Below, in pieces: positions 37,801-54,806 of a stretch of DNA of 64,000 bases (positions are counted from its first letter, which is position 1; each line of letters begins with the position of its first letter). Under the pieces are notes generated by a model that saw only the letters and a program-made list of their open reading frames with translations, made no database searches and was not told the DNA's origin. Source of the stretch: a virus. The DNA lies in the IMG/VR virus record IMGVR_UViG_3300032093_000041, positions 1-64,000 of that record; one strand, written 5' to 3'. Made by a program: the position numbers and the translations under genes.

Positions 37801-40028
37801 CTGGTGCTAAAAAAGGTTCTAATAGCCTTGGTCCTTTAGCAGAATACTTGGAAGTTGACCTGGGAGATGGTTGGCACACAGCCGATGCTGACTCTGAAGC
37901 GTCAGCAATGATTATTGAAAGAATGCTAGATAGAGCCGCATCAAGGCCAGACACACCAAGACGCATACTCGACGTTGACCAAGTGCCGCTAATTGTTCAG
38001 GAGCGCCGTGCCCAGTACGACAGAGACATGGCGGATTACTCAAAGAAAAAAGCCGAATACGACCAGTTAATCTCAGGACGCATGGGTGCTTCCCAGTTCG
38101 AGACAGCAAACGGTTCTGTATATACGCGCCAGCAAGATGGAACATTCCGCAGAAAAAAGAGCGCAATGCTCGGAACCACAATCGAAGACACCGACATAGA
38201 GTCAACATATGACAACACAGTATTTGTCGACGCTGATGATGCTTATTTGATTATGGCGCAGGGTCAAAGAGGCGCAATCATCGATAAAGATGGGGACCTA
38301 GTTGGTAGGCGATACGACGACACAGATTTGGACAGTGCAAAGTTCATGTCATTCCGCCGCGAGGGAGACGACTTCGATACTGCATATAAAAAAGCAGGTG
38401 GCACGGTTCAGGAAGAAAAAATACCAGCAGTTCGTATCAGCAGAGAACCGCAGAGCGGTTTAAAGCCAATTGAGTGGAACAACAAAGACAACAAATTTCA
38501 TGTCGGTAGCCCTGTTTCTTCGATAACCATGGAGACAAGCCAGCAAATATCTGGCAGGATGGGAAATCCTCAACGAGCATCTTTGGCAAAAACAGTGCAG
38601 GTTAAAGAGATGCTTGCCTCGACGAAAAGCTCTGTTGGTGCAGCAATGTCGGATGAGTACATTGATTCCTGGCCTGAAATTGAATCAAAGCTAAATCAAA
38701 GCGAAATCCTTGCTCGTAAGCCATTGACTAAATCAGAAGCCCGTCAAAGGACTAGAAGTGGAATTCAATGGTTTGCTAAAGCATTGCAAGATGCAATAGG
38801 TGGAGAAGGTAGAGACCCACAGCAAACAGTTATGTCGCCGTACTTAAGAGGCGTTGAGCTTGACTTCATGGCACACATAGCAGAAATGTCTGAAGATGAA
38901 CTTGAGCAAGAAGTAATTGATGCCATATCAGAGTTTCACGCCGGAATAGACCCTCGCCCGCATATTCAGGTATGGCAAGGGGACTTGACGCGCATTATTC
39001 AGAATGGCTACAAGACAACCCATCAGGTCGATAGTGACCACAGCAATAGTCCAATGAGAAAAGTCTATGAAGCAGAAATAGGCATACACCCCGACGTCCC
39101 TGACACAATGAGGCCAGCTTCTGGTTATATAGTTCATACAGATTGGCTCAACGCAGAAGACAAAGCTGCAGCAGATTTGGTACAGCTAGTCCCCGGCGCT
39201 GACCCTGAAGTCAATTTACCTGAATTCACTTCCCGAGGAAATGCGGAAACAATGCGCGGTCCTGTTCATGTATACGGCGGAGCTGAAGTTATATTACGCC
39301 CAGAAACTAGCGGAAGAACTTTTTATGGATATGGTGATTCACTGAGAACTAGGTTTACCCCTGCCAGCGTCGAGTCGGTCGACCCAGACGAAGTTGCTCG
39401 GTCGATTATTTTTGGTGGAACAACACCGGTAGAAAATATGCTCGATTTGCTTCATGGGAAATGGAAGGGTGACTATTCTTCTAGGCGCTATGAAGCAAAC
39501 AGCCCATCAAAAGAGTATTATGAAGCCCTCGTTGTTGGGGGATTTGATGCTGCCGACATAGAGGAAGTAATAATCCCTTCTCCAGAGGTAATCCCTGTTG
39601 AGGTGCTTTTTGAGTCAGAATCGTTGCCTGGGCAAAGAAACGAAGACAGAATTGCAAGGGGATACGACACGGACGCAACCATACCTTCTTTTTCAAAAAT
39701 GAAAGAATCTCAGTATTGGGTTGACAACGCCGGTGTAAGCGCCGAAGATGCCGAAATTATAGCTAGAGAAATAGCCAATAAAAAATTATTGTCCGTTGGT
39801 TCTAATGTTAATTTAGCCCGACTCCTTGCGGCAGAAAAAATCCGCAAACAACTTGAGGCTGCTGGAGCAAAAATGACAGTCCGCAACGATACGGGCGTGG
39901 ACTTCTTTAACCCAGACAGCTGGATTCAGGACATGAAAGACAAGTCAATGGAAGACGTTGCGGAGGCGCGTATGCGGCAAAGAATCATGTGGTCAATCAA
40001 AGACCAGCTAGCTAAGGCGACAGCATGA
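34857..40028 (+). CDS. Giant polyvalent protein 1: zincin (HETGH) | DEDDh exonuclease | unknown domain | DUF3626/ART-like
   Basis: HETGH 36273; FFDYETTG...FDL...HTADAD; RPASGY...YG...GDSL...YYEA; four exact ISGRMG motifs between domains. Confidence 0.8.
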   Translation: MQDDVLKNKLLGMASSKDAKLSTAPSSSSKKNTDDEVKKEDKPEKPSKAQSEYEQFLIDWEPSDPLPFFPPGKIIKLCHLSNNPMVTGSDYYIDNPETTKKAYKPNKKSIEEEFLEVKNLGPKLSRGLSSLLAMVARSRGLWVDDKNKLRCPEGTPAANQFTDITGSNCFIPSPSAAAQSGARAARRAFGTAEQMAAGMGQRVDRSPSGRSNAAARYSPSDLAMLQAGMDIGGRMAMLGGASPSLRQTRGTGGASKTGMPIYYIGKREAIARGKDLTRAAAELKRRYSTSAQASEAIVYPPGSRFAGQPIGDVLNKADFMRAMEEFMPNVDPNEFSEYFDNAIPGVLSLNDRRAYVRMFEAFWQATIQQMTEQPDAYKIITTFEMMDDINTAVEIQVDPFSPSPQSGGRLAGVGAIQMARQAGLMAEGGAHVRFKISPFGMWQQANNVGRNMDSDGSGWWDSREGRMHYIAVHETGHVVDFYQKLKAFGLDPNAMQRYTAPQRVVNVPGAGPSVQQDKYNGAWIIDWSQVSNPMNNPFIDDMIQAAARLKGTQYTGSRFSGRKIDLQDDMNAFYANLVWGFQNNINHDPSDLPLMAALVGGAYATDSGVETRAEYFVYRRLFGELRGAQSATPGFNPFKDQLQSGPFDATPSDIDLRTTSARKNQSNNLLTHFLDAWATQERQRALEPGGALYQIIQQLPPGQAIPQSIIEDFERNVAADTLARLNKLGQDVFGVAPNQWNISGRMGNIQGPSSRPPSLHAQRVRTAVRSNNIRTTRGKKQPSVSYGISGRMGNPDPVKPQRPREPDNGPFTGKFLDVLRGSSTWKQFAKKYRDQEVVFFDYETTGFGDDGNMPVQIGAVKMKNGKVVERFNVFVNPGIPLGDWAKKNLKDDKGQPLTDEWLASKASLKESHEKLLEFFGEDALLGGQYTPFDLEVLERILGQVGLEYKPAGVIDSKAMADEILPRWTPENPDGPTMIDPKTGAKKGSNSLGPLAEYLEVDLGDGWHTADADSEASAMIIERMLDRAASRPDTPRRILDVDQVPLIVQERRAQYDRDMADYSKKKAEYDQLISGRMGASQFETANGSVYTRQQDGTFRRKKSAMLGTTIEDTDIESTYDNTVFVDADDAYLIMAQGQRGAIIDKDGDLVGRRYDDTDLDSAKFMSFRREGDDFDTAYKKAGGTVQEEKIPAVRISREPQSGLKPIEWNNKDNKFHVGSPVSSITMETSQQISGRMGNPQRASLAKTVQVKEMLASTKSSVGAAMSDEYIDSWPEIESKLNQSEILARKPLTKSEARQRTRSGIQWFAKALQDAIGGEGRDPQQTVMSPYLRGVELDFMAHIAEMSEDELEQEVIDAISEFHAGIDPRPHIQVWQGDLTRIIQNGYKTTHQVDSDHSNSPMRKVYEAEIGIHPDVPDTMRPASGYIVHTDWLNAEDKAAADLVQLVPGADPEVNLPEFTSRGNAETMRGPVHVYGGAEVILRPETSGRTFYGYGDSLRTRFTPASVESVDPDEVARSIIFGGTTPVENMLDLLHGKWKGDYSSRRYEANSPSKEYYEALVVGGFDAADIEEVIIPSPEVIPVEVLFESESLPGQRNEDRIARGYDTDATIPSFSKMKESQYWVDNAGVSAEDAEIIAREIANKKLLSVGSNVNLARLLAAEKIRKQLEAAGAKMTVRNDTGVDFFNPDSWIQDMKDKSMEDVAEARMRQRIMWSIKDQLAKATA

Positions 40029-40348
40029 AAAAGGTATTGGTTGGGAAAACTGGAGACGGAGGCAAGCTCTACTTTGTCATAGGCGGCAAGACAGACGGCA
40101 TTTATCAAACCAGAAACAGAATGACTGAAATCAGTTTTTGGGATTTTGTTGACAAAAGACCAGATTTAGAAGAACTAACAATAACCAAAACACAGAAAAT
40201 GCTCTGGTCAAGAAATGTCTCAAATGCGGAGTGGGTTTCCCGCTTTATGCCACCGCAATGGAGGGTTAGCGAGGATGAAAACCCATACAACCTCAAAGTG
40301 AGTCGCGCATTAGATACAATAAGAACTACGACAGATTATCTGTTCTAG
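40025..40348 (+). CDS. Small protein coupled to giant 1 (candidate immunity)
   Basis: ATGA overlap with upstream stop; 107 aa. Confidence 0.6.
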   Translation: MKKVLVGKTGDGGKLYFVIGGKTDGIYQTRNRMTEISFWDFVDKRPDLEELTITKTQKMLWSRNVSNAEWVSRFMPPQWRVSEDENPYNLKVSRALDTIRTTTDYLF

Positions 40349-40374
40349 AATTAGCCCTGCCGCAAGGATACCTA

Positions 40375-41019
40375 GTGGATACTTTTGAGAAATTTCTCTC
40401 CAATAAAATTATAATTGTAGACGAAGAAAAGGCGGGCGGACCTGCCGGTGCTGTCATCCCCCAGGAAAGACTTACTGGCGACGTACTAAAAGGTCGGGGG
40501 CCCAGAAGGGGAAATCTCGAAAGACTCCTTAGATACTGGCGTCCAATAATGAAAAAACCGGGCGGCTTCAGGCGTTGTCGCGTAATCCTGGCAGACCATC
40601 CTGAGCTTTACCCACTGGAGAATATCTGCGCTTGGTTGCATCATGAAACAACGGGTCTATGGCCTAACGAGGGATGCCACCACCCCGGCATGAAGAACTG
40701 CAAAAAGAAGCTTAAAAAGGGCACCCAGGGCAGCCTTTGGACAGACAAAGACTTTGATGACAGGATGAGAAAACTTACATCTAGGGCGACCAGAAAGAGT
40801 CTACAATTTTCTGGTGTAGTAACCCCCGATGAGCCGTTTGCGCCAGTAATCACTAATGAAGATTACGACCATGCTTTTAAGGTTTTACAAGATTTCTTTG
40901 AAATGGAACCAGACTTTTGCAAAATGCTCATAGACGAATCCAGCTGGGAGCATACGCATGGTTTTGAAACTCCTAAAATTAAGATGGTCCCGGTAGATGA
41001 AGACAGTATCTCTTTCTGA
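40375..41019 (+). CDS. Head-associated hypothetical protein (Cys/His motif)
   Basis: LERLLRYW...PGGFRRC...CAWLHHETTGLWP pattern, which I recall from actinophage head-module proteins. Confidence 0.6.
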   Translation: MDTFEKFLSNKIIIVDEEKAGGPAGAVIPQERLTGDVLKGRGPRRGNLERLLRYWRPIMKKPGGFRRCRVILADHPELYPLENICAWLHHETTGLWPNEGCHHPGMKNCKKKLKKGTQGSLWTDKDFDDRMRKLTSRATRKSLQFSGVVTPDEPFAPVITNEDYDHAFKVLQDFFEMEPDFCKMLIDESSWEHTHGFETPKIKMVPVDEDSISF

Positions 41020-43057
41020 TTGCTGCAGCGAAAAAGGGCTGCAACCAATAATCCAGACTCGGCACGTGATGCCAGAGTTAGCGCTGACGCACGTCAACGC
41101 ATTTGAAGAGCCACTACCCAAAGACTCCAGTTATCGTGCTGCAGTTCTGTACAAGTGTGCAATGCAGCGCCGAGGCGGACGTCAGGGGCTAGAAGTAAAA
41201 GTTGGTTCAATCACGTCGACAAGCCCATTCTTACAAGGGGTTCAATCCGTTGGTTCAATGCTTGTCCCTGGAGACACTGCCCCACTGCGAAGCCCAGTAC
41301 GGTCAGGACTAGCCAGGCTTGTTACCCCCGGTGGTGTTCGTGGTGCCAACCCTTTTGCTTATGGCAAGCCAAACCGTGGCTACAGATGCCCAGAGGGTTA
41401 CCAGTTCGGCGGAAGATTCACTGACTCACGTTTTTCTACATGCGGCAAGCAGTTATTTGACCTTCCAGGCACGATTGGTGCCGTAATAGGAACAGCGCTT
41501 AGGCGGTCTGCAGATTCTTTAATTGACGGTTTTAAACCCACGACAAGTCGCGTGGGTGCGCTTTCTGTGTCCGGAGACATAATTCAAAGCAGGGCACCAC
41601 AGATACCTAGAGTATCTTCCCTCAATAAAAGAGTAAGAAACTCCAATACAGAATCAATCGTCTCTGCAATGTCGAGCGTTACGGAACCGTACAGAAGAAT
41701 GGTGCGTCGTGATGGATTTGTTCTTGAGCCAGTTGTTAGCAATGCTGTGCTACGAACGATTCCTGACAACAGAGACATGGAAGGTGCAACGTTCATACAG
41801 ACAGCTCTTGAGCCGAAGACGATTGGACAAGACGAACTAGGTCTACTTTCCAACACAGGAATTCAGAAGCTTGTCTATGTCCTTAATGGTGGCTCAACCC
41901 TTAATATTGAAAAAGCCAGGCCCCTGACTGTTGGTGAAAGACGCAAACTCGGTAAAACCGTGAATGTCGCAATGAGGGCCGACAACAGTTCCGACCCAGC
42001 AGCAAGATTGAGACTTGTAGCAGAAGAAATGGGCGACGCTGTTAGATATGAAGAGTCTTTCGAGCAAATATCAAACCCCAACGAAATAGTTGTGGCAAAG
42101 ATTCCTGGCTCGAACGTTAAAACACGTGTGAAAAGATGGGTTTATGAAGCGTTTTACGCCAAAAAACCAACTAAAAAAACGCCAGCAGAAGTAGATACAG
42201 AGGACGGCGACACGCTGTCCCCCGGCAAAAAAATTGACAATCTTTCTGGAGCCGTACGTCACTTAAACGCAGGCGGTTCTTTAGAAAATATATCTAGCGC
42301 AATTCGCGTAGAGGCTCTAAGACGTAGTCGACTTTACAAGACTGGGAAACTCAAAGAAGGAGTAATTCTTCACGAGCGTGCAGATGGACAAACTGTCTTT
42401 GAAATGAAACCGAAAAAAGACTTTGAGCATCTAGGTGCAGCATTTGCATCAGAAGTGCAAAGGTCTCTAGGTCTAATCGCGCCAAAAGTGAGGGTTGCTG
42501 GAAGCGGAAATAGGCGTCCGTATCTTATTGGGGAAGCACAGGATGCTGCCACCAAGGGCTCGCAATCACGTTCAGACGGTCTTAAAAACGTCGCTGCAGA
42601 GGATTTGGTTGGACTGGCTATTGCTGACTGGCTTACCGATACATACGGTAGGTCTCCGGCGAATATTGCTCCGGTGAACATTAGCGGCTCAATGCGTGCT
42701 GTCTCATCAATAAATCCGATGGCTGGTTTGCCGACATCAAATGCTCGAAATGTAAGAGTCAGAATGGATTCTTCGATTGATGATTTTTTTGGCCAGCAGT
42801 TGCGCGAAATGTATCGCAAAAATTTCGAGCGCTTGCAGGCTGAGCAACGCAAAAAAGCTTTACAAATCATTGCTGCATATATAGAGCGTGCGCAAGATAT
42901 AGACTTTGCGGACATGAGAAGGCGTCTAACTTTAGACGGTTCTTTATCTCAGGCAGAAAAACGACACCTTGGAATTATCGAAAACCTTTTTAATAGGCGG
43001 CTTGAAACGCTTCGCACGTCGCGGGCAGCATTTATAAAAGTTCTCGGTCTAAAGTAA
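40997..43057 (+). CDS. 686-aa protein with RCP leader module and C-terminal degenerate HipA/PI3-4K-like kinase fold
   Basis: LEVK...YRCPEGYQFGGRFTD; LGLIAPKV...IADWLTDTYGRSPANI. Confidence 0.65.
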   Translation: MKTVSLSDCCSEKGLQPIIQTRHVMPELALTHVNAFEEPLPKDSSYRAAVLYKCAMQRRGGRQGLEVKVGSITSTSPFLQGVQSVGSMLVPGDTAPLRSPVRSGLARLVTPGGVRGANPFAYGKPNRGYRCPEGYQFGGRFTDSRFSTCGKQLFDLPGTIGAVIGTALRRSADSLIDGFKPTTSRVGALSVSGDIIQSRAPQIPRVSSLNKRVRNSNTESIVSAMSSVTEPYRRMVRRDGFVLEPVVSNAVLRTIPDNRDMEGATFIQTALEPKTIGQDELGLLSNTGIQKLVYVLNGGSTLNIEKARPLTVGERRKLGKTVNVAMRADNSSDPAARLRLVAEEMGDAVRYEESFEQISNPNEIVVAKIPGSNVKTRVKRWVYEAFYAKKPTKKTPAEVDTEDGDTLSPGKKIDNLSGAVRHLNAGGSLENISSAIRVEALRRSRLYKTGKLKEGVILHERADGQTVFEMKPKKDFEHLGAAFASEVQRSLGLIAPKVRVAGSGNRRPYLIGEAQDAATKGSQSRSDGLKNVAAEDLVGLAIADWLTDTYGRSPANIAPVNISGSMRAVSSINPMAGLPTSNARNVRVRMDSSIDDFFGQQLREMYRKNFERLQAEQRKKALQIIAAYIERAQDIDFADMRRRLTLDGSLSQAEKRHLGIIENLFNRRLETLRTSRAAFIKVLGLK

Positions 43058-43058
43058 A

Positions 43059-46000
43059 ATGAAACAAATTTCTCTTGTTAAAGACAAAATAGACGGGTCC
43101 CCTTTTGCTGTCCTCCTGATAGACAAAGGTTCTGTCACGGCATATGGCTCTCCTGGACAAGGAGAAGACTGGGCAGAATGGGTCAATAGTCAAGAAACAT
43201 CCGTAGAAGAAATACAAGATGTTCTAGATGTTCGCCTGGTTGCTGAACCATCAATTCCAGCAAAAAAATTTAACGAGAGCTCAATCAGTAGCTACTTAGG
43301 TCAAGAAGCAATGGACTTGCTAATGGCAGAGTTAAATAAAAAAGCTCTGCTAGAAATAGTTCAAGTTAAGTCAGAAAGTCAGCCGCAGGAGTATGACGAG
43401 GAAGACCTTCCGGACTACACGCCCATATCGGTGTGGCCGTTGTCTGAAATATCGCTGGCTTCCATAGATGTTGCATACAAATCTCAGCTTGCTGATTACA
43501 AGGCTAAAGCTTTCAACGCCGACAGAAACAGGCGGGCGCTTGCTCTTGAGGTGAAGTGGGCTAGAGCTATTTGGGATAACGACCGTCAAGGATGGCGTTG
43601 CCCACCAGAGACCACCAATGGCGGCCAGTTCACTAACAGAATGGGTCTTGGTTGCACCACTGGTCTTGTTCGACGTCTTGGTCAATCTCTGATGAGCATT
43701 GAAGACAGAAATAAACTTCAGATGCAGCTCCCAGGACTAGAAGACCCGAGAGGTTTCCTGTATCGCTCTGGTTCATTAATTGACCAGCGAGCAGAAACTA
43801 GACAGCGTGAATTTGCTGACCGACAAGAACGTCGCGCAGCACGCCGCGTTCGCAGTCTTATCGAAAAAGAAGGAAAAAAAGAACAAGAGCGTTTAGCTAA
43901 AGAAAACAAACGCAAACATCGTTCTGGGGAATCTCTAAGAGATATTTATTCAAGTTTTACGCCAGACGCAAGCAGAGTGTCTCGCGCACGTGCTGCTGGA
44001 GCAGTAAAGCTTCGTCGGTTTGCATCCAACGTAGAGCAAGAATCACTCAGGAATATTGGGGCGAGTCAACAGCGCAGAGACCGCAGGGTTAGGGACGTAT
44101 CAGAGGAAAAGCTAGACAGTAAGAAGATACGCAAGCTCCGCGATTTTGGTGGAAAAATACCTGGTTCAAAACTTGGAGGCTATGTCCAGTACGACAAGAT
44201 GATGGCAGACGACAAAGGGCAGGCTGTCGACATCAATGGCGAACTCATGGTCCCTCGTGTTCTTGTGGACATGGATGAAATGCACTCTAATCCATACTAC
44301 GGAAGAGAATTTTTAACAGATGATTCCGGTAATCAAGTAGAAAATTTCCATGCCAATCATAAGTGGGTCACCGTAGAAGAAGTACTCGCTATGGCGTCTA
44401 TCAATCGCGCGACCAAACCAGCACATGACTGGATTGAAATGCGTAAGGGGCGAGGTTTCCCTGGTGATGAAACCATTGAGTTTGTTGAAGCAAAAGAACT
44501 TCGTAAAATTCAAAAAGACAATGGATTTATTGGAGTTCGGTCAAGCTTAAAAGACAAAGGCAAAGGCCGTTTTGACGGAGACACTCGCGGCAAAGGCAAG
44601 AAGAAGACAAAACCAGCGCAAGGCGGCTCCATCGGCGACATGGAATTTGAGCCAGATGAATTGCCGCCAACCGTCGCAAAAAGGTTTGGAGATGCATGGC
44701 GCGATAGCAGAAAACGTCTTGGTTCGTGGATTGCAAACCTTGACCCCTTGCTAGATGAAGACCAGAAAACACGTCGCGAAAAGCGTCGCCGCCAAAAAGC
44801 TTCAAAATCTAAAGACTCGAGCGCCATAAACGGTGCAAACATTCTTCAGTCTCTATTCTCTGATATTGATGACCCGATAGAGGCAACCGTGCGATACGCA
44901 CAACTGTCCAACTTTAAAGAACCAGAGTTCAGAGACTGGTACGACTACACCACAAACAACAAACCAGTACCTGAGCGTCGCGAAGATTGGAACTTTGGAT
45001 TCAATAGTGTAATTGGCGAACCGACACCTCATTTTGCTCGGCTCAAAAACCTTATAGACGGAATAGTGTCAGAACACGCCGCTGGCGTACTGATTACAGC
45101 GGACGACTCAGAAGACCCCGATATAACCAAATTTATTTTTCAAGATTACGACTTCAGTACAAAGTTTAGGTCTGGTCAAATTGGGAATGTATACAACGTG
45201 CGTGTTGTAACAAGGACTGATGGCGTTGAAGAAGTACGACAAATAGCTGTAGATTCAATAAGTCTAAATCGCTGGACGGATAATCCATTAGACGAGAACA
45301 GACAACCAATTACGGCAACTGATGCAGGTCTATATATGCTGTGGTCAAACACAACGTTTTTAGATGTTCCGGAAGATGTCGTAGAGAGAGCAGCTAGTGG
45401 GCAAATGCCTACGTTTGAGCTCGTAGAGCTTGCTGCGAAACAATGGGTGGACCCAGGGTATCACGGTGCTCAGCCGCCTGCTTTCTATTATGACCAGGCC
45501 ACTAAATGGCACGAACATTACAGGGTTATCGGCTTCAACCAAAAGGGTGCTCCGCTATATATCAAGGGTGCAGGCGGGAGGGGTCGGACCGGGTCAACGT
45601 CGGTACATATCCCTGGCACATCAAATTCTGTCGTAGACACGAGAACCGGTGGTCTTATTTCTGGCCGCATGAGCCAAGAAACAATAATCACCCCAGAAGG
45701 TCAGCGAGCCCTAGACGACCCTAATGTGAATATTTGGACTGGTGAACAAAACTTTCTGGTGCTTGACGGAGGCCCTGCACCCGGGCGCGGACGCCGGCGT
45801 CGTCGCACATCTGGTCCTACGCCCCAGTCTCCTGGTGTTGTATCGCGCTTCCTTGATGGAGAAGGTCGCCAACTAAGTAGAGAACGCCGCAGCGCAAGAA
45901 GGATGCTAAAGGGGCGTACACCAAAAGACACACGCCCGATACGTCAACGCATAGAAGCTGCGCTGTATGAGAGGTCACGTCGTCGGTCAGGCGAGCCAAG

Positions 46001-49000
46001 ACCCATTTCAATGCAGGCACCGGATATCGACATAAACGTTTACTCCGACGAGCTTCGCAGAATGGAAGAAAGCGGAGAGTCGATAGAGGCACGCAATGCA
46101 CTTCCACCGATAGATGGCGTATATGACTGGTTGCTCCCAGATAACTTTTCCGCTGGCAATGATTGGTGGGGCTCTGGCGTAAACCAGCAACGAATAGACA
46201 CCCTTAATGCTTCATTACACGAGCTTGGAGGTTCATTCTTCCCGCTCGTATCGCAACGCGATATTGACCGTTTGCCGCAGCTTGCTGAAGAAGGCAGAAA
46301 GTGGCTAGAAGACATAAATGACCCTGACAAGGATTCTGCTCCTGGAGAAGTATCCAACTGGGGTTTTGCCGAATGGAAAGAGTATGGAGGATATACATAC
46401 GTTTACGATTCGAGGAACGAAACAAAACCGCCCATTGCAATCGTAAACAACGAATCCGGCACAACGCACATGATTGGCAAAGATGGCCAACACCTTATGA
46501 CTCTGGTCACGAGAGTGGCTCCATCTGGAGAAACTGTATTTTTGCCCGTTGGCTCAAACTCGACGCATAAACGGCTCGACAACATCACTGAGCAGCCGGG
46601 ATTCTTGCAGACAGTTTTAGGTAAATTCCGTAGACGCCAACAGCAAGACATAAACCCAGAGCAGATTATCCCTGGTCTTCGTTCCAGAGAACGAGCATTC
46701 ACTCGTGGCGACAATACAATTGAGGACGTTCGTTCCCAGTTTGAGAATGGGACACCTTCAGATACGTTCCCATACTCATTTGCAACAAAGCAACGTACTG
46801 GCGCATTAGCTCCAACTTCTCTTACAACTCTTCAGGAGGAGTCACTGCTAGAAGAAGCAGATAAACTGCAGGTACAAATCGCCGATGACTTTAGACGTCA
46901 ATTGGGTCTAAACAAAAAAGACCAACTGACCGAAGAGGCAATCAAAGACCTCATTGATGACCTCCAACGTCGTGGCAAAAAACGCGAAGCTGGAATTGCA
47001 ACAAACAACCTTCACGACCTTGCCGTACTTGATGACATGTTGCAGTCACGAGACGTTATGCATGTCAACAACCTAAAGCCGGGCCGCAGGCATCTACTTT
47101 TAGGCACAAGCGTAAACCCAGTACCAGACTCCGAGCAAAAGCGCCGCCGCGCAATGACGCCAGACATGATTCACGTTTCCAGTGATTCAAGAGCAATGGA
47201 TTCAAGGCTTTCAGACAGAGGGGACACAGACCCAGCAACGTCTAAGAGAACATATCCGAGTGGAGCAATAAATCTCTACGAACCGTCTGAAGAGTCGTTT
47301 ACGCCTTCATCGCCAAGGCCGCAAACTGGACCAGCCCTCATTCCGGGGGAGGGCGATGCTACTGGAACAATTGTTTATCAAAACGGAATGTATTTTGATA
47401 CGTCAACAAACCGTTACGTAGAAGACTTAAGTGGTCTCGATTTTGAATCAGCAGACTTTGTCCATGTTCCTGTTCCTTTAGAGGAATCTTCTACAAACGG
47501 AATCGACGATTTAGGCGGGGAGTTTCCTAAAATTCTTCTTACTTCCGGACCTGGTGCTCCTAGTCGACAATCGGCAGTCATAGCTCCTGGAGTTTCAAGC
47601 ACGAATCCAGAAGCCGCTCTTACTTCTAGGCCAGATGCTGTTAATGCCGTCGTAGCAAAACCGAATTCATTTACCGAAGCATTTTACTTAGTAAGAAATA
47701 GATGGCGTCAGATTGCCGCAACAAAACCTGCCGACCAGACTGAGCCATACCGAAAGCTGACAGACAAGATTGGCGCAGACCCAGCTCCGACTGCATTTAT
47801 GCTGTCGTCGCTGTTGAGCCCGCTTCTTTCTAAGGCAGACGGTCTGGAATCAGAAGAAGGCGTGTCTCTATATTCAGCACCAATTCATTCCCCTACGCTT
47901 TCCGGTAGCGACAATGCCGCAGGAATATTGAGGGCAATAAGAAACGCATCAAGAAAATCACCAACAGAAAACGGTCTTTTCTCTGATTACTTACCTGGTT
48001 CATCAGGCGACATTGTCTCGTATTCTGGTATGGCAGTTGGGCCCCACGCACCCCGTGGGCAGACGGTACTTGACGCAATAGGCGTATTTGCTGACTTGCC
48101 GTTTGAGACTGTTTATATACCGAGCACCCAACCAATAGCTCCAAATGTGGCGCAGCACAATAGTTTAGCGAATGCAAACCGAACATTACTTGATACAAAA
48201 ATATTCCGGTCGCTGAACGCTGCACTCCAGTTGGATTACGCGTCGCAAAAAATGCGTCAGCTGCTGGATAGCGGCACACCACAAGAAATAACTGGCTGGA
48301 ACGACACATGGGGTAAAAGATTCGGCGGAAGATTTGACATAACACAAGCAGATATTGAGTCTGTCGAGCAGCTACGTGATGCAGCGTGGCAGCGTGCGGC
48401 GGAAGACCTTTCGTCCGTTGCTAAAAATGCTGGTGACCGCAGAAACGACTTCCTTAACCAGTGGCGTAATCGCTCCCAATTCCGCCCAGAGAATCGCGAG
48501 ATAGACGCTGAGCTCAGCATTGCCACCGAATACATCACTAATGGTGTTATTGCTGAGCAAGCGGAGTACCTACTCACTAAGCACATACTCACCAATCCAC
48601 GAATAATGCAAAGCCTTGCTCAGTCCGAGCTTGTATCTTTAGAGTCGCGTTCAAGAGAAGCGAACAAGAGAATGGAGAGGCTCGAAGCTATACGTAGTGC
48701 GCAAACCGCACTAGGTAGGCGCTCTATGCCTGGGTATTCACCAGAAGACATTGACCCCATTGAATTATTGCCAGTACTTGATAGACACGGTGATGGTGTT
48801 GTTACAAACGCATCACTGCGCGACCCAGCAGAAATAGTCGAAATATTGTCTGACCACAAATCTCTTGGATTTGGAGCTCCTTTAGACATAGACCCAGCAA
48901 CTGGAGAATATGTTCCATCCATTTTAACCGACGACCAAATGGAAGCATTGGCGCTAATAGATTACTCAATCCGTAGAAATCTAAGCCAAGGAAGTCCAGC

Positions 49001-50411
49001 AGATGAATACGGATATACCGGCATGCCGGAAGCAAACACCGTATTTGGACACCTAGAGCTAGACAATTTACCTCCAGAGAACCTAACTGGCTGGCAACGC
49101 CAATCCCCAGGAGCCGCTGCAGTATGGTCTCTTATGGAGGCTTCTGGATTCAACGGAAACCCACTATTGCTTGATGTAGAAGAATTTAAAGAAATAGCTA
49201 AAATTGAAGATTCATCAGGAAAACGACAAACTCTAGTTGTAACCAGAGGTATCGATTCTCATGGAAGAAACTCAGGAAGTTTTCTCACCAACTTGCTCCT
49301 AAGAGCTAAACGCTCGCTTCTTGGTTCAGGCGGAGCACAGCATGGAACGGGAGAATATTGGAGCGCTCAGCCTTTTGAATGGCGCTCAAACAGTGAGTCT
49401 TCGGCAATCGGAATGATTGTGCGCGGAAATCACAGGGTAGGTTCGCATGAATTGCTCGTAGGTACCGACAGCTCAGCAAGAACTAACGGCTCGAATGGTA
49501 TCTTGTCGGATTTATTTTACGAAGCCACGTGGGCTGTTGCAAACGCACTTGGTGCAAGAGGTTTCGGCAGCGGTACAAATCCTAGTCACGGACAAGAATA
49601 CGCAGCAGATATCCCAGTTAATTCAGTGAAAATAGACCCTGTTACCGGACTGTATGACCAGGCCGACCTGGATAACCTACAACTAAAAATCCTGGAACTG
49701 ACCAGGGCGTTTGACCCATCACAAGGCCTCGGTAGCGCTGGCCTGATGACCCTTGAGAAGTGGGCGGACAGAAGAAATTTTGTTACAGATTCCATAATCC
49801 CAGACCTTGCTGGTGGAGCTGCAGCTTCAAACTTCGACCGCAATGAGTCAGCAATCAGGGAAAGGCAATTTTTAAATGCCTGGCTTGGCCAACACTTGAG
49901 CTGGATGGTTCAACTGGCACAAATGCGACGAGATGAGTCTGACCGGGTCAACGGAAAGGAAAACGCTCAGTGGAATAGGCGTCTAGATGCTGCTCAGCAC
50001 TCCATCGTGATGATGGACCCAAATGCCAGAGCAGCAATGATGGGGTATGACGTTCTGATTAGACATGACCAGAACAGTCATAACTGGAGCAGCAGGAGTC
50101 AATACGACACAGACGCCAGTTATAGGTTTGGCGATTATGATTTCTGGGAGCAAGACAGCAGCAGAATAACACTCCATAATCCGAAAGTGTTGCTGATGTT
50201 AAACAGAACAGCCACTCCGATGCTGAGGCGTGTCCATTCTTCTCAGACATGGGCCGTTAGAAGCAACCGGAGCGGAGGGCATTTCCTTGATGGGTCAGGA
50301 CTGACAATCGCAGACATATTGCAGGAGATACCAGCAAATCCAACAACACCTGAAGAACAATATATCGCCGATACTCTTACTAGGTATATAGAATTATGGG
50401 GCGGACTATGA
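43059..50411 (+). CDS. Giant polyvalent protein 2 (2450 aa) with C-terminal ART-fold-like domain
   Basis: LEVK-WRCP leader; ISGRMS at 45657; C-terminal GFNGNP...TRGI...GTGEYW...AAMMGYDVL...LNRT. Confidence 0.7.
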   Translation: MKQISLVKDKIDGSPFAVLLIDKGSVTAYGSPGQGEDWAEWVNSQETSVEEIQDVLDVRLVAEPSIPAKKFNESSISSYLGQEAMDLLMAELNKKALLEIVQVKSESQPQEYDEEDLPDYTPISVWPLSEISLASIDVAYKSQLADYKAKAFNADRNRRALALEVKWARAIWDNDRQGWRCPPETTNGGQFTNRMGLGCTTGLVRRLGQSLMSIEDRNKLQMQLPGLEDPRGFLYRSGSLIDQRAETRQREFADRQERRAARRVRSLIEKEGKKEQERLAKENKRKHRSGESLRDIYSSFTPDASRVSRARAAGAVKLRRFASNVEQESLRNIGASQQRRDRRVRDVSEEKLDSKKIRKLRDFGGKIPGSKLGGYVQYDKMMADDKGQAVDINGELMVPRVLVDMDEMHSNPYYGREFLTDDSGNQVENFHANHKWVTVEEVLAMASINRATKPAHDWIEMRKGRGFPGDETIEFVEAKELRKIQKDNGFIGVRSSLKDKGKGRFDGDTRGKGKKKTKPAQGGSIGDMEFEPDELPPTVAKRFGDAWRDSRKRLGSWIANLDPLLDEDQKTRREKRRRQKASKSKDSSAINGANILQSLFSDIDDPIEATVRYAQLSNFKEPEFRDWYDYTTNNKPVPERREDWNFGFNSVIGEPTPHFARLKNLIDGIVSEHAAGVLITADDSEDPDITKFIFQDYDFSTKFRSGQIGNVYNVRVVTRTDGVEEVRQIAVDSISLNRWTDNPLDENRQPITATDAGLYMLWSNTTFLDVPEDVVERAASGQMPTFELVELAAKQWVDPGYHGAQPPAFYYDQATKWHEHYRVIGFNQKGAPLYIKGAGGRGRTGSTSVHIPGTSNSVVDTRTGGLISGRMSQETIITPEGQRALDDPNVNIWTGEQNFLVLDGGPAPGRGRRRRRTSGPTPQSPGVVSRFLDGEGRQLSRERRSARRMLKGRTPKDTRPIRQRIEAALYERSRRRSGEPRPISMQAPDIDINVYSDELRRMEESGESIEARNALPPIDGVYDWLLPDNFSAGNDWWGSGVNQQRIDTLNASLHELGGSFFPLVSQRDIDRLPQLAEEGRKWLEDINDPDKDSAPGEVSNWGFAEWKEYGGYTYVYDSRNETKPPIAIVNNESGTTHMIGKDGQHLMTLVTRVAPSGETVFLPVGSNSTHKRLDNITEQPGFLQTVLGKFRRRQQQDINPEQIIPGLRSRERAFTRGDNTIEDVRSQFENGTPSDTFPYSFATKQRTGALAPTSLTTLQEESLLEEADKLQVQIADDFRRQLGLNKKDQLTEEAIKDLIDDLQRRGKKREAGIATNNLHDLAVLDDMLQSRDVMHVNNLKPGRRHLLLGTSVNPVPDSEQKRRRAMTPDMIHVSSDSRAMDSRLSDRGDTDPATSKRTYPSGAINLYEPSEESFTPSSPRPQTGPALIPGEGDATGTIVYQNGMYFDTSTNRYVEDLSGLDFESADFVHVPVPLEESSTNGIDDLGGEFPKILLTSGPGAPSRQSAVIAPGVSSTNPEAALTSRPDAVNAVVAKPNSFTEAFYLVRNRWRQIAATKPADQTEPYRKLTDKIGADPAPTAFMLSSLLSPLLSKADGLESEEGVSLYSAPIHSPTLSGSDNAAGILRAIRNASRKSPTENGLFSDYLPGSSGDIVSYSGMAVGPHAPRGQTVLDAIGVFADLPFETVYIPSTQPIAPNVAQHNSLANANRTLLDTKIFRSLNAALQLDYASQKMRQLLDSGTPQEITGWNDTWGKRFGGRFDITQADIESVEQLRDAAWQRAAEDLSSVAKNAGDRRNDFLNQWRNRSQFRPENREIDAELSIATEYITNGVIAEQAEYLLTKHILTNPRIMQSLAQSELVSLESRSREANKRMERLEAIRSAQTALGRRSMPGYSPEDIDPIELLPVLDRHGDGVVTNASLRDPAEIVEILSDHKSLGFGAPLDIDPATGEYVPSILTDDQMEALALIDYSIRRNLSQGSPADEYGYTGMPEANTVFGHLELDNLPPENLTGWQRQSPGAAAVWSLMEASGFNGNPLLLDVEEFKEIAKIEDSSGKRQTLVVTRGIDSHGRNSGSFLTNLLLRAKRSLLGSGGAQHGTGEYWSAQPFEWRSNSESSAIGMIVRGNHRVGSHELLVGTDSSARTNGSNGILSDLFYEATWAVANALGARGFGSGTNPSHGQEYAADIPVNSVKIDPVTGLYDQADLDNLQLKILELTRAFDPSQGLGSAGLMTLEKWADRRNFVTDSIIPDLAGGAAASNFDRNESAIRERQFLNAWLGQHLSWMVQLAQMRRDESDRVNGKENAQWNRRLDAAQHSIVMMDPNARAAMMGYDVLIRHDQNSHNWSSRSQYDTDASYRFGDYDFWEQDSSRITLHNPKVLLMLNRTATPMLRRVHSSQTWAVRSNRSGGHFLDGSGLTIADILQEIPANPTTPEEQYIADTLTRYIELWGGL

Positions 50412-50797
50412 AATCTATAGATAAATCATCTTTAACGTCAGACGAATTTGCAATGTATTCACAGAGCAAGTTAAAACTAAAACGAGCCGTGGAGGACATG
50501 TATCAACTTGCTGAGTTGCCTCCATTTGCTTTTGACAAGACAGGAAAAACTCCAGAACTTGCTGGGGAATTCATACAAGACATAAATGAACACCTTCGAG
50601 ACATTGATGAAGAAGATTTCATCACAGATAGATATAGGCCACTTGTAGACATAAAAACCAAATATGAAAACGAACTCAATGAAGCTCGCAAAATACGCGA
50701 CAGTGCGCCCAAGCTTGGCCTAGCGTTAAAAAAATGGTTTGAAGACAACAATCTACGAATGGACGAAGCGATAGCGTATTTCTACGGCGTGGATTAA
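50408..50797 (+). CDS. Small protein coupled to giant 2 (candidate immunity)
   Basis: ATG 50408 forms an ATGA overlap with stop 50409-50411. Confidence 0.6.
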   Translation: MKSIDKSSLTSDEFAMYSQSKLKLKRAVEDMYQLAELPPFAFDKTGKTPELAGEFIQDINEHLRDIDEEDFITDRYRPLVDIKTKYENELNEARKIRDSAPKLGLALKKWFEDNNLRMDEAIAYFYGVD

Positions 50798-50799
50798 AT

Positions 50800-53700
50800 A
50801 TGCTTATTGAAAACGAAGACGAGAAGCCTAGGAACAGAAAGCTTCGACGCAACAAAAAAAACTGGGAAAAGCTTAGAGAAAAACCAATTGTCGCTATCGA
50901 TACCCTGTCTGGTGGCGGTCTTGTTTCAGGTCAAATATCGGGCAAAGCTCTGGGAGGACGCATAGGTCGTCGTATTGGTGGAGCCTCTAAGCCAATGGAT
51001 ATGAATCCGACTACAGCAAGAGACGCCGACATGGACGGAATGGTCTTAGAGGGCATACCAACAATTCGCCAAGGAAGAGGAATGCCAGACCCCACACCGG
51101 GAGGCGAAGTCGCCGGCCGAATGGGCAGGGAGCAAAATAAAGAAGAGTTTGTAGGTGTAGACAAGCTTTTGCGCCAACATTTTTCACAGTTTGCAAAGTT
51201 TCAAGAATGGACGAAAAACAAAGATTGGAACGCATTCCATAGAAACCATTTTGACTGGTGGATGTTTCCAATCCCTCTCGGTTCTAATTCATATAGGGAT
51301 GAGTACAACATTGCCGGGGAACCGCTAGAAGAACTACGGCAAAACAAACGCTACATGGCAACGCTGGCGAGCGCAATGAGGATGTACACACGTTCAATCG
51401 GCTGGGACATGGACAGTCAAGAGTGGATAAATAACGCCGAAATAGAACGTGGGCAAGAGCCAGTTAGAAGCCTTAATCGTGCTCGCTTACTCAAAATTGC
51501 CCAGTCAGCTGAAGCTCATGGTCTAGATAATGAACTTAGCTCGATGAGCCACATGGTCAACGACATGCGTTCGAACGGCATCCCAACCGGAAATGATGAA
51601 TACTGGAATTCTATTTCTGGAAGGATGAGCAATCCTGATAGACCAAATTTTCCACTTAACCCAAAACAAGGCGACACTTTCTCTTCAGATGACCCAGAAG
51701 ATACAAGAATATGGAAATTTGATGGAAAGTTATGGGTTAGGCAAGACGGAGGCGGAAGACGCTCCGCGACAGTTGGGTTCCGTAAAGCCGGTGGCAGCGG
51801 GGGTAAAAGTATATCTCCATCAGCTTCTTCTATTAGGGCTGGTTCAGAAAGAACTGTAAAATATGGTTCGCCAGCTTTCGATGAGCTGTGGGAACGCCGC
51901 GACAAAGAAAACGAACAGGCGGACGGCACCAACCTAACATTTGACTGGAAAAATGAAGAGTCAAGGCTTTACTACTTATCAGTATTTGGCAAATTTCCCA
52001 ATACTCATCCTAAAAATAGAAAAAAAGTGGGATGGGCAAAATTTGGTGGGGGTAACGAGCCTGGGAATTATTCTGGGGGAACTCACTCCTGGATTGCTGC
52101 AGTAAAGAATCAATTGCGTGAACTTGGAATTTCACTCGTCCCACAAGAACACCCTAAAATGGGGGACCAATATGGAAGCTGGATTTCTTTCTCCGGCAGC
52201 CCTGGTGCGTCTGCTGCAGAAGGAGCATCAGCAAAACAGCTGTTATCTCATCTTGCAGAAACAATTAGCCCTGATACATTCTATGAACACTTTGAAGCTT
52301 GGATTAGAAATCCATTTGTAACAGCACAAAAAAACGGCAAAGACGTTGGCGTAAGACTTGCTTTCAACAATGATAAAGAAAAGCTTTTAAATGAATACCG
52401 GCGTAGAGTTATAGCGCTACGAGATGCATTGTACTCTCATTTTGGTAACGAGGTTGACGAAGTTGCCGAAACAATGGTTAAGCCCCTAACAGACTCATCA
52501 GGAAAATCCAGCACCAATACTGGGAACGATTGGGTAGACCTAACAGAAAATGCTAGATGGGCTTCCAACTTAATCAAACAACAAGTATCAAATATTCTTG
52601 AACAAGAAAAACCTCGCAGCGAAGAACGCCTTGCATATCTTTTAGATTCGCGACTGCAATCAAAGCTACCTGATGAAATAAGGCAACAAATACGAACATC
52701 TCCTAGTTTTATTAGAGGCTTGCTTCAAGAAGAATTCAAAAACAGGGACTGGGGGAGAGGAGATAATTTCTCCCAAATAGATTTAATGCCCTCCGTTGAT
52801 GACGAAACGGTGTCCCTGATTGAAGAATTAGCTGACGAATTTATAGAAAAACTAATAAGCGAAAATGCCGATGTGAGCGTAGTAAGTGACGCAGATTCTA
52901 AAAATTTCATTGATTCATTTGTTCAGGATTCCTCAATGCGGACATCCGCAGCAAAGCCGATGTTGCAGAGCAAACTCAGCAACAGAATAGCTAGAGGACA
53001 AATTTCTGGGAAAATGGGAAATACCCCAGAAAATGACATAGAAGCGAAAGACCTTGAATACGACCCCGACACGCCAGAGCATTTAGGGAACCATTTCACA
53101 TCGAAACATGAAGGGTACGACGTTAGGCCTAACCCTGTAGACAACGTCTTGGATGCGCGCAATACCGGCGCACCACTGGAGTGGCTCGTACCAGGTTCGT
53201 ATCACCCAGAAATAAAAGAATTAGTCAATGGGCTGACGGACAAGGTATTGGAGCTTGGGTTTGCTAGTTACCTACAAACAAATCCAGACTTCTACATGGG
53301 CTCTAAAGATACCGCTGGTCGCGATGCAGCATCGGAATTCAGAGGTTGGCTCGGAGGATGGATTGGAGCAACTGTTTCCAAGATAATGGCCTTGGGTGAT
53401 TTTGGTGAAGATTTTGAACTAGACGACGGTCATAGGGACTTCATAAGAAATTTCGTAGGAGACATGGCCGACACAATGACCCGCTTCTCTGACATACCGC
53501 GTGAAGACCCTGACGGTCGTGGCGGCAACACAATGCAAGTGCTTCGTGGCCTTATTTCTCGTGTTCCTGGATTTGGTTCAGGGGGAAGTATGACAAGCGA
53601 CCTAAGTCAAGAAGTAAATGACATAGCCAGCGGACTAGCAATGCGGGCCATACACGCAGGGTTAAAAATCAACAACATGCAACGTATGGGTATTAGCGAT

Positions 53701-54603
53701 AGACGTAGGGCGAACCAAGACACACTTGACTGGTGGAACTCTGCCATAGGCGCTGGCCTGCTTTCTACATCTCCTAGCGATTATGAGTCGATAGACGATA
53801 TTGGATACGAAAACCTAATGAAAGAGTCGCAAGTATCTGTGGCCATGCCTATTAATGCTGTTTTAAATATGTTTGCTGATAACGAGTTTAAAACGCTATT
53901 TGAAACAAACACCAGCCAAGGCAATGTCAACACTTCAGCTCGGGCCGCAGCAGAATTTGCGATGTTCGGAATCCTCCCCTCATATAAGGGGAAGAGGCCT
54001 GCTTACGGAATTTTGCACGTCGGCGGAATGACAGAAGATGCAATAAAAAACACGAACCAGTACGGACCCATAAGAATTGTCCTAAACCCCGACATGAATG
54101 AAAAGGTTACTTGGACAGAAATTGACTCACTGTCCTTGATGTCAACAGCTTCAACGTTAAAGAACCCGTCACAGCATGGGCTTTTTGGACAAAGGCTTAC
54201 TTCTGACACCCCCTTTACAAGGGTTTCGGCAGCCGACATTATCTCTCTTATCGAGCGTGGCCGAGATGTATCAAATAGCGCAGACGACAAGAGTGCCATA
54301 GGTAGGTCCAAATATGCAGAAGCTCAAATTCATTCAAAGATAACTCTGGAAGACATTCAATACATTGTCGTTGACGACACCGACTTTAGATGGGGGGATA
54401 TTGATTTTCCTCCATTTGGTCCTGATGGGATGATTCTGATGCAGGACGACGATGGTTATGAGGAAGCAGCAGATGAATTTCCCGATGACATTATGGATTA
54501 TGAAGGATTTATTCAGATATCCAAAATTGCAGAATCTCTTAACATTCCCGTTGTTCTGCTCAGTGATATAACAAATGCTGGCGAAGAGGTGGTGAGGCCG
54601 TGA
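50800..54603 (+). CDS. Giant polyvalent protein 3: OGFr-like | unknown domain | DUF3626/ART-like
   Basis: HFDWWMFP...RLLKI..S; FKTLFETNTSQG...RPAYG...QYG...WT..DSL...YAEAQIH; VAGRMG, ISGRMS and ISGKMG between domains. Confidence 0.75.
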   Translation: MLIENEDEKPRNRKLRRNKKNWEKLREKPIVAIDTLSGGGLVSGQISGKALGGRIGRRIGGASKPMDMNPTTARDADMDGMVLEGIPTIRQGRGMPDPTPGGEVAGRMGREQNKEEFVGVDKLLRQHFSQFAKFQEWTKNKDWNAFHRNHFDWWMFPIPLGSNSYRDEYNIAGEPLEELRQNKRYMATLASAMRMYTRSIGWDMDSQEWINNAEIERGQEPVRSLNRARLLKIAQSAEAHGLDNELSSMSHMVNDMRSNGIPTGNDEYWNSISGRMSNPDRPNFPLNPKQGDTFSSDDPEDTRIWKFDGKLWVRQDGGGRRSATVGFRKAGGSGGKSISPSASSIRAGSERTVKYGSPAFDELWERRDKENEQADGTNLTFDWKNEESRLYYLSVFGKFPNTHPKNRKKVGWAKFGGGNEPGNYSGGTHSWIAAVKNQLRELGISLVPQEHPKMGDQYGSWISFSGSPGASAAEGASAKQLLSHLAETISPDTFYEHFEAWIRNPFVTAQKNGKDVGVRLAFNNDKEKLLNEYRRRVIALRDALYSHFGNEVDEVAETMVKPLTDSSGKSSTNTGNDWVDLTENARWASNLIKQQVSNILEQEKPRSEERLAYLLDSRLQSKLPDEIRQQIRTSPSFIRGLLQEEFKNRDWGRGDNFSQIDLMPSVDDETVSLIEELADEFIEKLISENADVSVVSDADSKNFIDSFVQDSSMRTSAAKPMLQSKLSNRIARGQISGKMGNTPENDIEAKDLEYDPDTPEHLGNHFTSKHEGYDVRPNPVDNVLDARNTGAPLEWLVPGSYHPEIKELVNGLTDKVLELGFASYLQTNPDFYMGSKDTAGRDAASEFRGWLGGWIGATVSKIMALGDFGEDFELDDGHRDFIRNFVGDMADTMTRFSDIPREDPDGRGGNTMQVLRGLISRVPGFGSGGSMTSDLSQEVNDIASGLAMRAIHAGLKINNMQRMGISDRRRANQDTLDWWNSAIGAGLLSTSPSDYESIDDIGYENLMKESQVSVAMPINAVLNMFADNEFKTLFETNTSQGNVNTSARAAAEFAMFGILPSYKGKRPAYGILHVGGMTEDAIKNTNQYGPIRIVLNPDMNEKVTWTEIDSLSLMSTASTLKNPSQHGLFGQRLTSDTPFTRVSAADIISLIERGRDVSNSADDKSAIGRSKYAEAQIHSKITLEDIQYIVVDDTDFRWGDIDFPPFGPDGMILMQDDDGYEEAADEFPDDIMDYEGFIQISKIAESLNIPVVLLSDITNAGEEVVRP

Positions 54604-54806
54604 TTGAGCTATTTGCCACCGGGCCAGGTGGGAGACAAAAAATGTTTAAAACCCATTCCGTCATGGTTGGAAATTCTCCTGTCTACTTTGGATACATACT
54701 CAGGAACGGCGAAAAAGGTGGAATAATTAACTTATCGTCCGTTGTTGCCTCTAATCCAGTTTGGACAGTCGTTGACGAATTTATCGCAGATACTAAACCA
54801 GAGTAG
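54600..54806 (+). CDS. Small protein coupled to giant 3 (candidate immunity)
   Basis: GTGA overlap with upstream stop; 68 aa. Confidence 0.55.
   Translation: MIELFATGPGGRQKMFKTHSVMVGNSPVYFGYILRNGEKGGIINLSSVVASNPVWTVVDEFIADTKPE

Follow-up and report, generated by a model that had tools for sequence, protein, structure and literature searches.

The window analysed here, a stretch of 64,000 nucleotides at the start of a linear IMG/VR virus record of 105,678 bp (IMGVR_UViG_3300032093_000041; estimated completeness 71%), is the head-gene block of an uncultured tailed phage, and three of its giant proteins (giants 1, 2 and 3) are each followed by a small open reading frame (ORF) of 107, 129 or 68 residues (s107, s129 and s68), which overlaps the end of the giant's own gene. 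Our main finding concerns the third of these pairs: a linker, the predicted ADP-ribosyltransferase (ART) module at the end of giant 3, and s68 form one cassette of ~530 + 68 residues, which is present or absent as a unit in related phages. Both giant 1 and giant 3 are predicted, from family profiles, a structural model and conserved motifs, to end in ART-fold modules of the SopF/DUF3626 type. We posit that s68 could be an unpackaged inhibitor, i.e. an immunity protein, of the giant 3 ART module, and consider the chances of this to be about even.

The case for the cassette is a comparative one. Wherever a giant-3-type tail occurs, an s68 homologue overlaps its stop codon (10/10 loci: the window, L005, L010, L008 and L105-L110), and the tails paired in this way are 25-70% identical. 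In the window, L005/L009, L010 and L008/L013 the DUF3626 module is kept and the s68 homologue has 64-74 residues, while in L105-L110, six further metagenome contigs, the overlapping homologues are found at E 1e-14 to 5e-31. Both parts are absent from five lineages (L011/12, L014, L015, L016/17 and L018), in which the giant 3 orthologue ends near residue 690-770, close to the last ISGxM linker, and its stop codon is followed by ~100-125 nt (~110 nt) of non-coding DNA. Trees built from the N-terminus of giant 4 and from giant 2 each require two or more joint changes; in both, the plus locus L013 is sister to the minus locus L011, with Shimodaira-Hasegawa-like approximate likelihood ratio test support of 90% in the giant 4 tree and 100% in the giant 2 tree. 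A search of 515 ORFs with the s68 profile extends the pattern: ORFs directly downstream of distant DUF3626 tails account for six of the eight sub-threshold matches, and one such ORF, that of L113/L114, is clearly s68-like by eye.

The assignment of the two tails draws on different kinds of evidence. DUF3626 is a domain of Salmonella SopF (PMC6682159), an NAD-dependent ADP-ribosyltransferase with a diphtheria-toxin-like I-Y-E triad that is activated by ARF GTPases (PMC10333799). The giant 3 tail matches the Pfam family directly; the giant 1 tail has no Pfam match, and its relationship emerges when families are compared, a 32-sequence alignment of giant 1 tails matching the giant 3 DUF3626 family with an hhalign probability of 97% (E 1e-10, 174 columns). 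The AlphaFold2 model of the giant 1 tail (predicted local distance difference test, pLDDT, 77.6) points the same way: its top match in the VIA structural comparison is SopF (7dn9_A, Z 12.0, root-mean-square deviation 3.9, 223 residues aligned), followed by DarT (Z 7), Tpt1 and OspC3 at Z 6-7, and Foldseek likewise returns SopF (7dn8_A, E 5e-4, probability 1.00). As candidates for the Y and E of the triad, a Tyr in xYG and a Glu in xEAxI/V are found in giants 1 and 3 as well as in the majority of their relatives. The DUF3626-like tails that a sequence-only reading of the window had proposed for giants 1 and 3 are thus borne out, the first by hhalign and the SopF match, the second by Pfam. Searches with single sequences gave little: by BLASTP the tails of giants 1 and 3 do not match significantly, the only homologue found for the giant 1 tail is a near-identical fragment, and the giant 3 tail by itself led to no related locus. 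In the PDB sequence search the tail-family profiles of giants 1 and 3 do not reach SopF, and the giant 3 tail alone finds nothing. Among the bacterial genome contigs scanned, the one match was a distant DUF3626 protein of Brevibacillus, which lacks a convincing partner.

All of s107, s129 and s68 are real genes. Between s107 and a 96%-identical relative, 15 codons differ synonymously and five non-synonymously, a sign of purifying selection; homologues of s107 occur in more than 25 distinct phages (the family comprises 32 distinct domain sequences), those of s129 in eight distinct phages, and s68 has nine homologues. A purine-rich, Shine-Dalgarno-like stretch precedes each small-ORF start, and s129 has an alternative ATG at 50396. 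The coordinates and lengths given by the sequence-only reading hold, as do its 4-nt start/stop overlaps (ATGA at 40025 and 50408, GTGA at 54600) and its statement that the three small ORFs are mutually unrelated: no pair among s107, s129 and s68 exceeds z 3 against shuffles, and hhalign gives the s107 and s68 families a probability of 12.5%. A broadened s68 profile is collinear with the s107 family over 56 columns (hhalign probability 33%, P 4.6e-4), which hints that the partners of both SopF-like tails may share an origin. The ESM Atlas held no usable match for s107 or s129. Two further leads were set aside: matches of the s68 profile to designed beta-propellers, the only ones in the PDB, arise through summed repeats and were dismissed as meaningless, and the idea that s107 resembles the N-terminus of giant 2 was dropped when the s107 hidden Markov model gave no match there.

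What kind of proteins carry these modules? The four giants and p686 contain the pattern [IV]SGxM 19 times, where shuffles would lead one to expect 0.19, and the other long frames of the genome (37,286 residues) do not contain it once. In giant 1, ISGRM at residues 742, 788, 1072 and 1231 separates the modules, among them an RNase_T exonuclease (residues 838-1018) and the last module (38562-40025); in giant 3, the linkers are ISGRM (residue 272) and ISGKM (residue 735), and the last module covers 53017-54600. The sites fall at the boundaries of RNase_T in giant 1, of DUF3626 in giant 3, and of the NUDIX, DnaJ, Zeta-like and GNAT domains in giant 4, and are kept in orthologues. They are candidate cleavage sites of the prohead protease, and the S78 protease encoded upstream is likely to be the enzyme that processes the giants. 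With at least two unrelated effector domains in one protein, as in giant 1 (RNase_T plus a SopF-like ART) and giant 4 (NUDIX, DnaJ, Zeta and GNAT), the giants fit the phage "polyvalent protein" kind, also because they sit between the protease and capsid genes, where scaffold and internal head proteins lie. From this position and from the ISGxM linkers we infer that the giants are packaged and delivered to the host. The genome has no match to PF18760 (ART-PolyVal).

On this basis, a role for s68 can be proposed. The giants would enter the procapsid, be cut by the prohead protease and reach the next host together with the DNA; translational coupling would yield roughly one s68 per ART module, and s68, which has no leader motifs, would bind and silence the giant 3 ART in the producing cell. 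Giant 3 would be packaged without s68, its ART remaining silent until inside the capsid. This inhibitor reading has a prophage precedent: Bxa, a MuF-ART toxin of a Bacteroides stercoris prophage, is bound and blocked by Bsi, the product of a small ORF, and each of the MuF toxins examined is followed by a small ORF that accompanies the toxin domain (PMC11699363). Packaged ARTs such as T4 Alt are likewise capsid-borne, enter with the DNA and modify host proteins (PMC5512222). For s107, immunity to the giant 1 ART is less probable than the corresponding function of s68, and its role is probably a related one.

Several observations weigh against immunity as the function of these small proteins. 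Searches of Pfam, PHROG and the PDB with s107, s129 and s68 returned no match of substance to a described immunity or antitoxin family. We know of no immunity partner for T4 Alt, and a lytic phage may need no late immunity. The last module of giant 4 resembles a helix-turn-helix and does not look enzymatic, yet it too is followed by an overlapping ORF, of 61 residues; as ~10% of same-strand junctions in this genome have a 4-nt overlap, and as giant 4 shares the arrangement, the overlap alone is no mark of a toxin. In at least seven loci, a giant-1-type ART (G1C) with intact Y/E motifs lies inside a giant and s107 is missing, and, conversely, G001 (L064), in which 59 kb upstream of the locus are covered, has an s107 domain and no G1C-type ART. 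Of the eight pairs given by independent contrasts, about two show G1C and s107 changing together, none shows them changing in opposite directions, and about six show no change. Moreover, the s107 domain forms the N-terminus of proteins of 473-1272 residues (L064/65/68/78/70/79/84/85/101 and L069/73), and an s68-like domain that of a 997-residue protein located directly after a 394-residue DUF3626 protein (L114). Such fusions are odd for an inhibitor, since an inhibitor should stay outside the capsid.

The coupling between the giant 1 ART and s107 is thus loose, and either part occurs alone. Standalone s107 genes, for their part, always follow a protein with a G1C-type ART: in L069/L073 a relocated G1C-s107 pair lies downstream of p214, and in L074, L076, L092 and L094 the G1C module is found in short proteins of 329-616 residues, with s107 after it. 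The sequence-only reading had seen three toxin-immunity pairs in tandem, and had taken co-variation of tail and small gene across related phages as the test, with small genes conserved independently of the tail as evidence to the contrary. What stands of this is the giant 3/s68 cassette, with its ten pairings and its five lineages without either part, which do co-vary; the giant 1/s107 pair is loose, s107 in part persisting without G1C and G1C without s107, and the giant 2/s129 pair is not polymorphic.

The fusions are the starting point for a different explanation, in which the small proteins serve for docking or hand-over, or as chaperones: they would bind the C-terminal ART of the preceding cargo and so link cargo together or escort the giant into the procapsid, and in some phages the next cargo protein would simply have such a domain as its N-terminal part. 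Indeed, the s107 domain heads proteins of 473-1272 residues in L064, L068, L078, L070, L079, L084 and L069, and in the fusions of L064, L070, L079, L084 and L069 the sequence past ~60-100 residues carries leader motifs seen in the giants, DxDxDG or RCP...FT...C; the s68-like N-terminus of the L114 protein would fit as well. A large gene followed by a small one is also seen after non-ART proteins in the window's own genome (G4-s61, p496-p83 and protease-s67). This big-then-small pattern is widespread in the phage group, because a more distant relative, L019, shows it too: there, head-block proteins of 917 and 1201 residues are each followed by an overlapping ORF, of 98 and 62 residues (L019:10550-10846 and L019:15460-15648). 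Against docking, however, s68 is gone exactly when the ART module is gone, though giants 3 and 4 remain to be packaged, and the standalone forms have no leader motif. We regard docking as unlikely.

Could the small ORFs simply be unrelated phage genes, e.g. for head accessory proteins, packed into an operon in the ordinary way, their joint presence or absence reflecting single insertions or deletions across neighbouring DNA? The frequency of 4-nt overlaps noted above is consistent with this, as is the weak coupling of G1C and s107 on independent contrasts, and giant 2 and s129 are invariant core genes, on whose functional coupling the comparative data are silent. The giant 3 pairing speaks against it, with ten out of ten tails of such divergence paired and at least two joint changes, as do the G1C-s107 pair, which is still adjacent after its relocation in L069/L073, and the enrichment of ORFs downstream of distant DUF3626 tails among the weak s68-profile matches. 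Ordinary packing therefore strikes us as slightly less probable still than docking.

Giant 2 has homologues along its whole length (27 clusters at 50% identity) and is a conserved core protein of the phage group. An s129 homologue follows every giant 2 orthologue examined, both being core genes in 8/8 distinct phages; with both invariant, co-variation has nothing to act on. The tail of giant 2 holds the motif-bearing domain that the sequence-only reading had described, with [ST]RG, GxGEYW[ST], MGxD and LNRS nearly invariant; its description as ART-like is a lead rather than a finding. The AlphaFold2 model (pLDDT 71) matches Spx (a PE-like toxin), diphtheria toxin, cholix, exotoxin A, PARP13, ParT and VPA0770 in VIA at Z 4.4-5.1, where the noise level lies at about Z 8; these ART matches cover the beta-sheet parts, and matches to helical bundles cover a big insert alongside. 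The tail has no Pfam match and no Foldseek match below E 0.8. It may have an ART-like fold interrupted by a large helical insert, and is at best a very divergent ART. The top Foldseek match, itself weak, was a pre-ejectosome chain of cyanophage A4 (9k3a_B, E 0.8).

Or could the s68/s107-type domain be a specific receptor for the SopF-like module, so that packaged giants are chained head-to-tail, each ART being bound by a domain of this type, either free or at the N-terminus of the giant that follows? Such a chain would fix the sequence in which the 10,000-residue effector load is packaged and ejected, and docking would be a function of the ART fold beside, or instead of, its role as an enzyme; we think this improbable. 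Least probable of all is that the small partner is no antidote and serves as an activating cofactor of the SopF-like ART in place of an ARF GTPase, since, for all that SopF activity requires the small host protein ARF1 (PMC10333799) and that partner and giant-3-type ART are strictly coupled, the partners are beta-rich proteins of 60-110 residues with no GTPase motifs or Pfam match, G1C-type ARTs occur without s107, and an activator made in the producing cell would worsen self-intoxication.

The inhibitor reading of s68 also has to be seen in its genomic setting (Table 1). On the plus strand from 28189, the window encodes a portal-MuF fusion, an S78 protease and then ~34 kb of very large and interleaved small ORFs, which lead to an HK97-type capsid gene beyond the window. 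The capsid gene lies 34 kb past the protease gene, and the space usually occupied by a scaffold gene holds ~10,000 codons of giants. In the left half, on the minus strand, unannotated ORFs resemble tail genes in order and size, and one of 1715 residues could be the tape measure. No close catalogued phage was found, the top portal matches being actinophage portals at ~40-45% identity. The most conserved gene of the block is p214 (55-98% identity over the 80 loci kept), the neighbour of s107; with its 353 relatives in IMG/VR, it marks this phage group as a large and uncultured one.

Table 1. Positions of the features discussed, in window coordinates unless a genome or locus is named.
Feature	Position	Strand	Length or character	Basis
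Portal-MuF fusion	28189..30477	+	762 aa	Pfam Phage_portal E 1.9e-50, Phage_Mu_F E 4e-7
Prohead serine protease (S78) + DUF6321	30568..32925	+	785 aa	Pfam Peptidase_S78, DUF6321; phrog_80 head maturation protease
Giant 1	34857..40028	+	1723 aa	ORF list
Predicted SopF/DUF3626-like ART core of giant 1 last module	38958..39590	+		hhalign and AlphaFold2 model fold match
s107	40025..40348	+	107 aa, beta-rich partner ORF; ATGA overlap with giant 1
p214	40375-41019		214 aa, Cys/His-rich, no family
Giant 2	43059..50411	+	2450 aa	End-to-end homology to giants
Giant 2 C-terminal domain	49113..50075	+	Residues ~2019-2339	Motif conservation; AlphaFold2 model
s129	50408..50797	+	129 aa, apparently helical, conserved FPPF motif; ATGA overlap with giant 2
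Giant 3	50800..54603	+	1267 aa	ORF list
Predicted DUF3626 (SopF-family ART) domain of giant 3	53866..54405	+		Pfam PF12294, 38.1-41.5 bits against a cut-off of 27
s68	54600..54806	+	68 aa, beta-rich partner ORF; GTGA overlap with giant 3
Giant 4	54827..64000, ends 66610 beyond window	+	3927 aa; NUDIX, DnaJ, Zeta-toxin-like, GNAT
Fourth small ORF	genome 66607-66792		61 aa; ATGA overlap with giant 4 stop
HK97 capsid gene	genome 66936-68279
SNase (staphylococcal-nuclease-like) gene	genome 68328-68750		Directly after capsid gene	E 4e-14
[IV]SGxM sites	37080, 37218, 38070, 38547, 42680, 45657, 51613, 53002, 56612-63494, on to 66610
s107-type fusions	L064:2744-6550, L070:3445-6618, L084:3830-6610, L069:11203-12624
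Protein with s68-like N-terminus	L114:3657-6647		997 aa, directly after 394-aa DUF3626 protein

SopF-type ARTs, known from one effector of an animal pathogen, appear here as predicted modules of phage polyproteins that are presumably packaged in the head. Should the partner be an inhibitor, multi-effector giants would come under the toxin-immunity logic of MuF toxins, and this ART family would gain a natural protein inhibitor; the compact cassette of giant 3 ART module (G3C) and s68 could show how a lytic phage silences injected effectors during assembly.

Among known systems, the MuF toxins, to which the sequence-only reading had likened the giants, are close in layout: Bxa, with Bsi or BAH (PMC11699363), is also a head-associated phage protein with a C-terminal ART and a small ORF directly after it. 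However, no giant has a MuF domain by Pfam, Phage_Mu_F being found only at residues 671-757 of the portal fusion, so the giants are not MuF toxins in the strict sense. They also differ from these toxins in carrying many modules rather than one toxin, in that no ADP-ribosylhydrolase immunity gene is seen here, and in the behaviour of two of their tails: that of giant 3 is present or absent rather than swapped, and that of giant 2 is not polymorphic. The tails of giant 1 vary by module shuffling.

The polyvalent proteins known from phages and conjugative elements (Iyer, Burroughs, Anand, de Souza and Aravind 2017; PMC5512222) are, like the giants, very large and join effector domains of several unrelated kinds (nuclease, ART, NUDIX, GNAT and kinase-like Zeta); their genes likewise stand among those of the virion, and packaging and injection are predicted for them too. 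No protein-modifying domain is commoner in that class than ART (PMC5512222), but the ARTs of that paper belong to the Tox-ART-HYD2 clade, and the term DUF3626 is absent from its text. T4 Alt resembles the giants, as we picture them, in that its ART travels in the capsid and enters with the DNA (PMC5512222), and differs as a single-domain protein of the R-S-E clade. SopF itself (PDB 7DN8/7DN9) has the fold and family predicted for the tails of giants 1 and 3, but it is a stand-alone type III secretion effector of 374 residues that has a eukaryotic V-ATPase as its target and a host ARF as its activator, whereas the phage domain is a module of a polyprotein, presumably with bacterial targets, and has a small partner gene of its own. 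Seen against these systems, the new elements are the predicted SopF/DUF3626-type ART modules, on which the comparison with the text of PMC5512222 was made, together with a recurrent linker and a dedicated small partner for at least one module.

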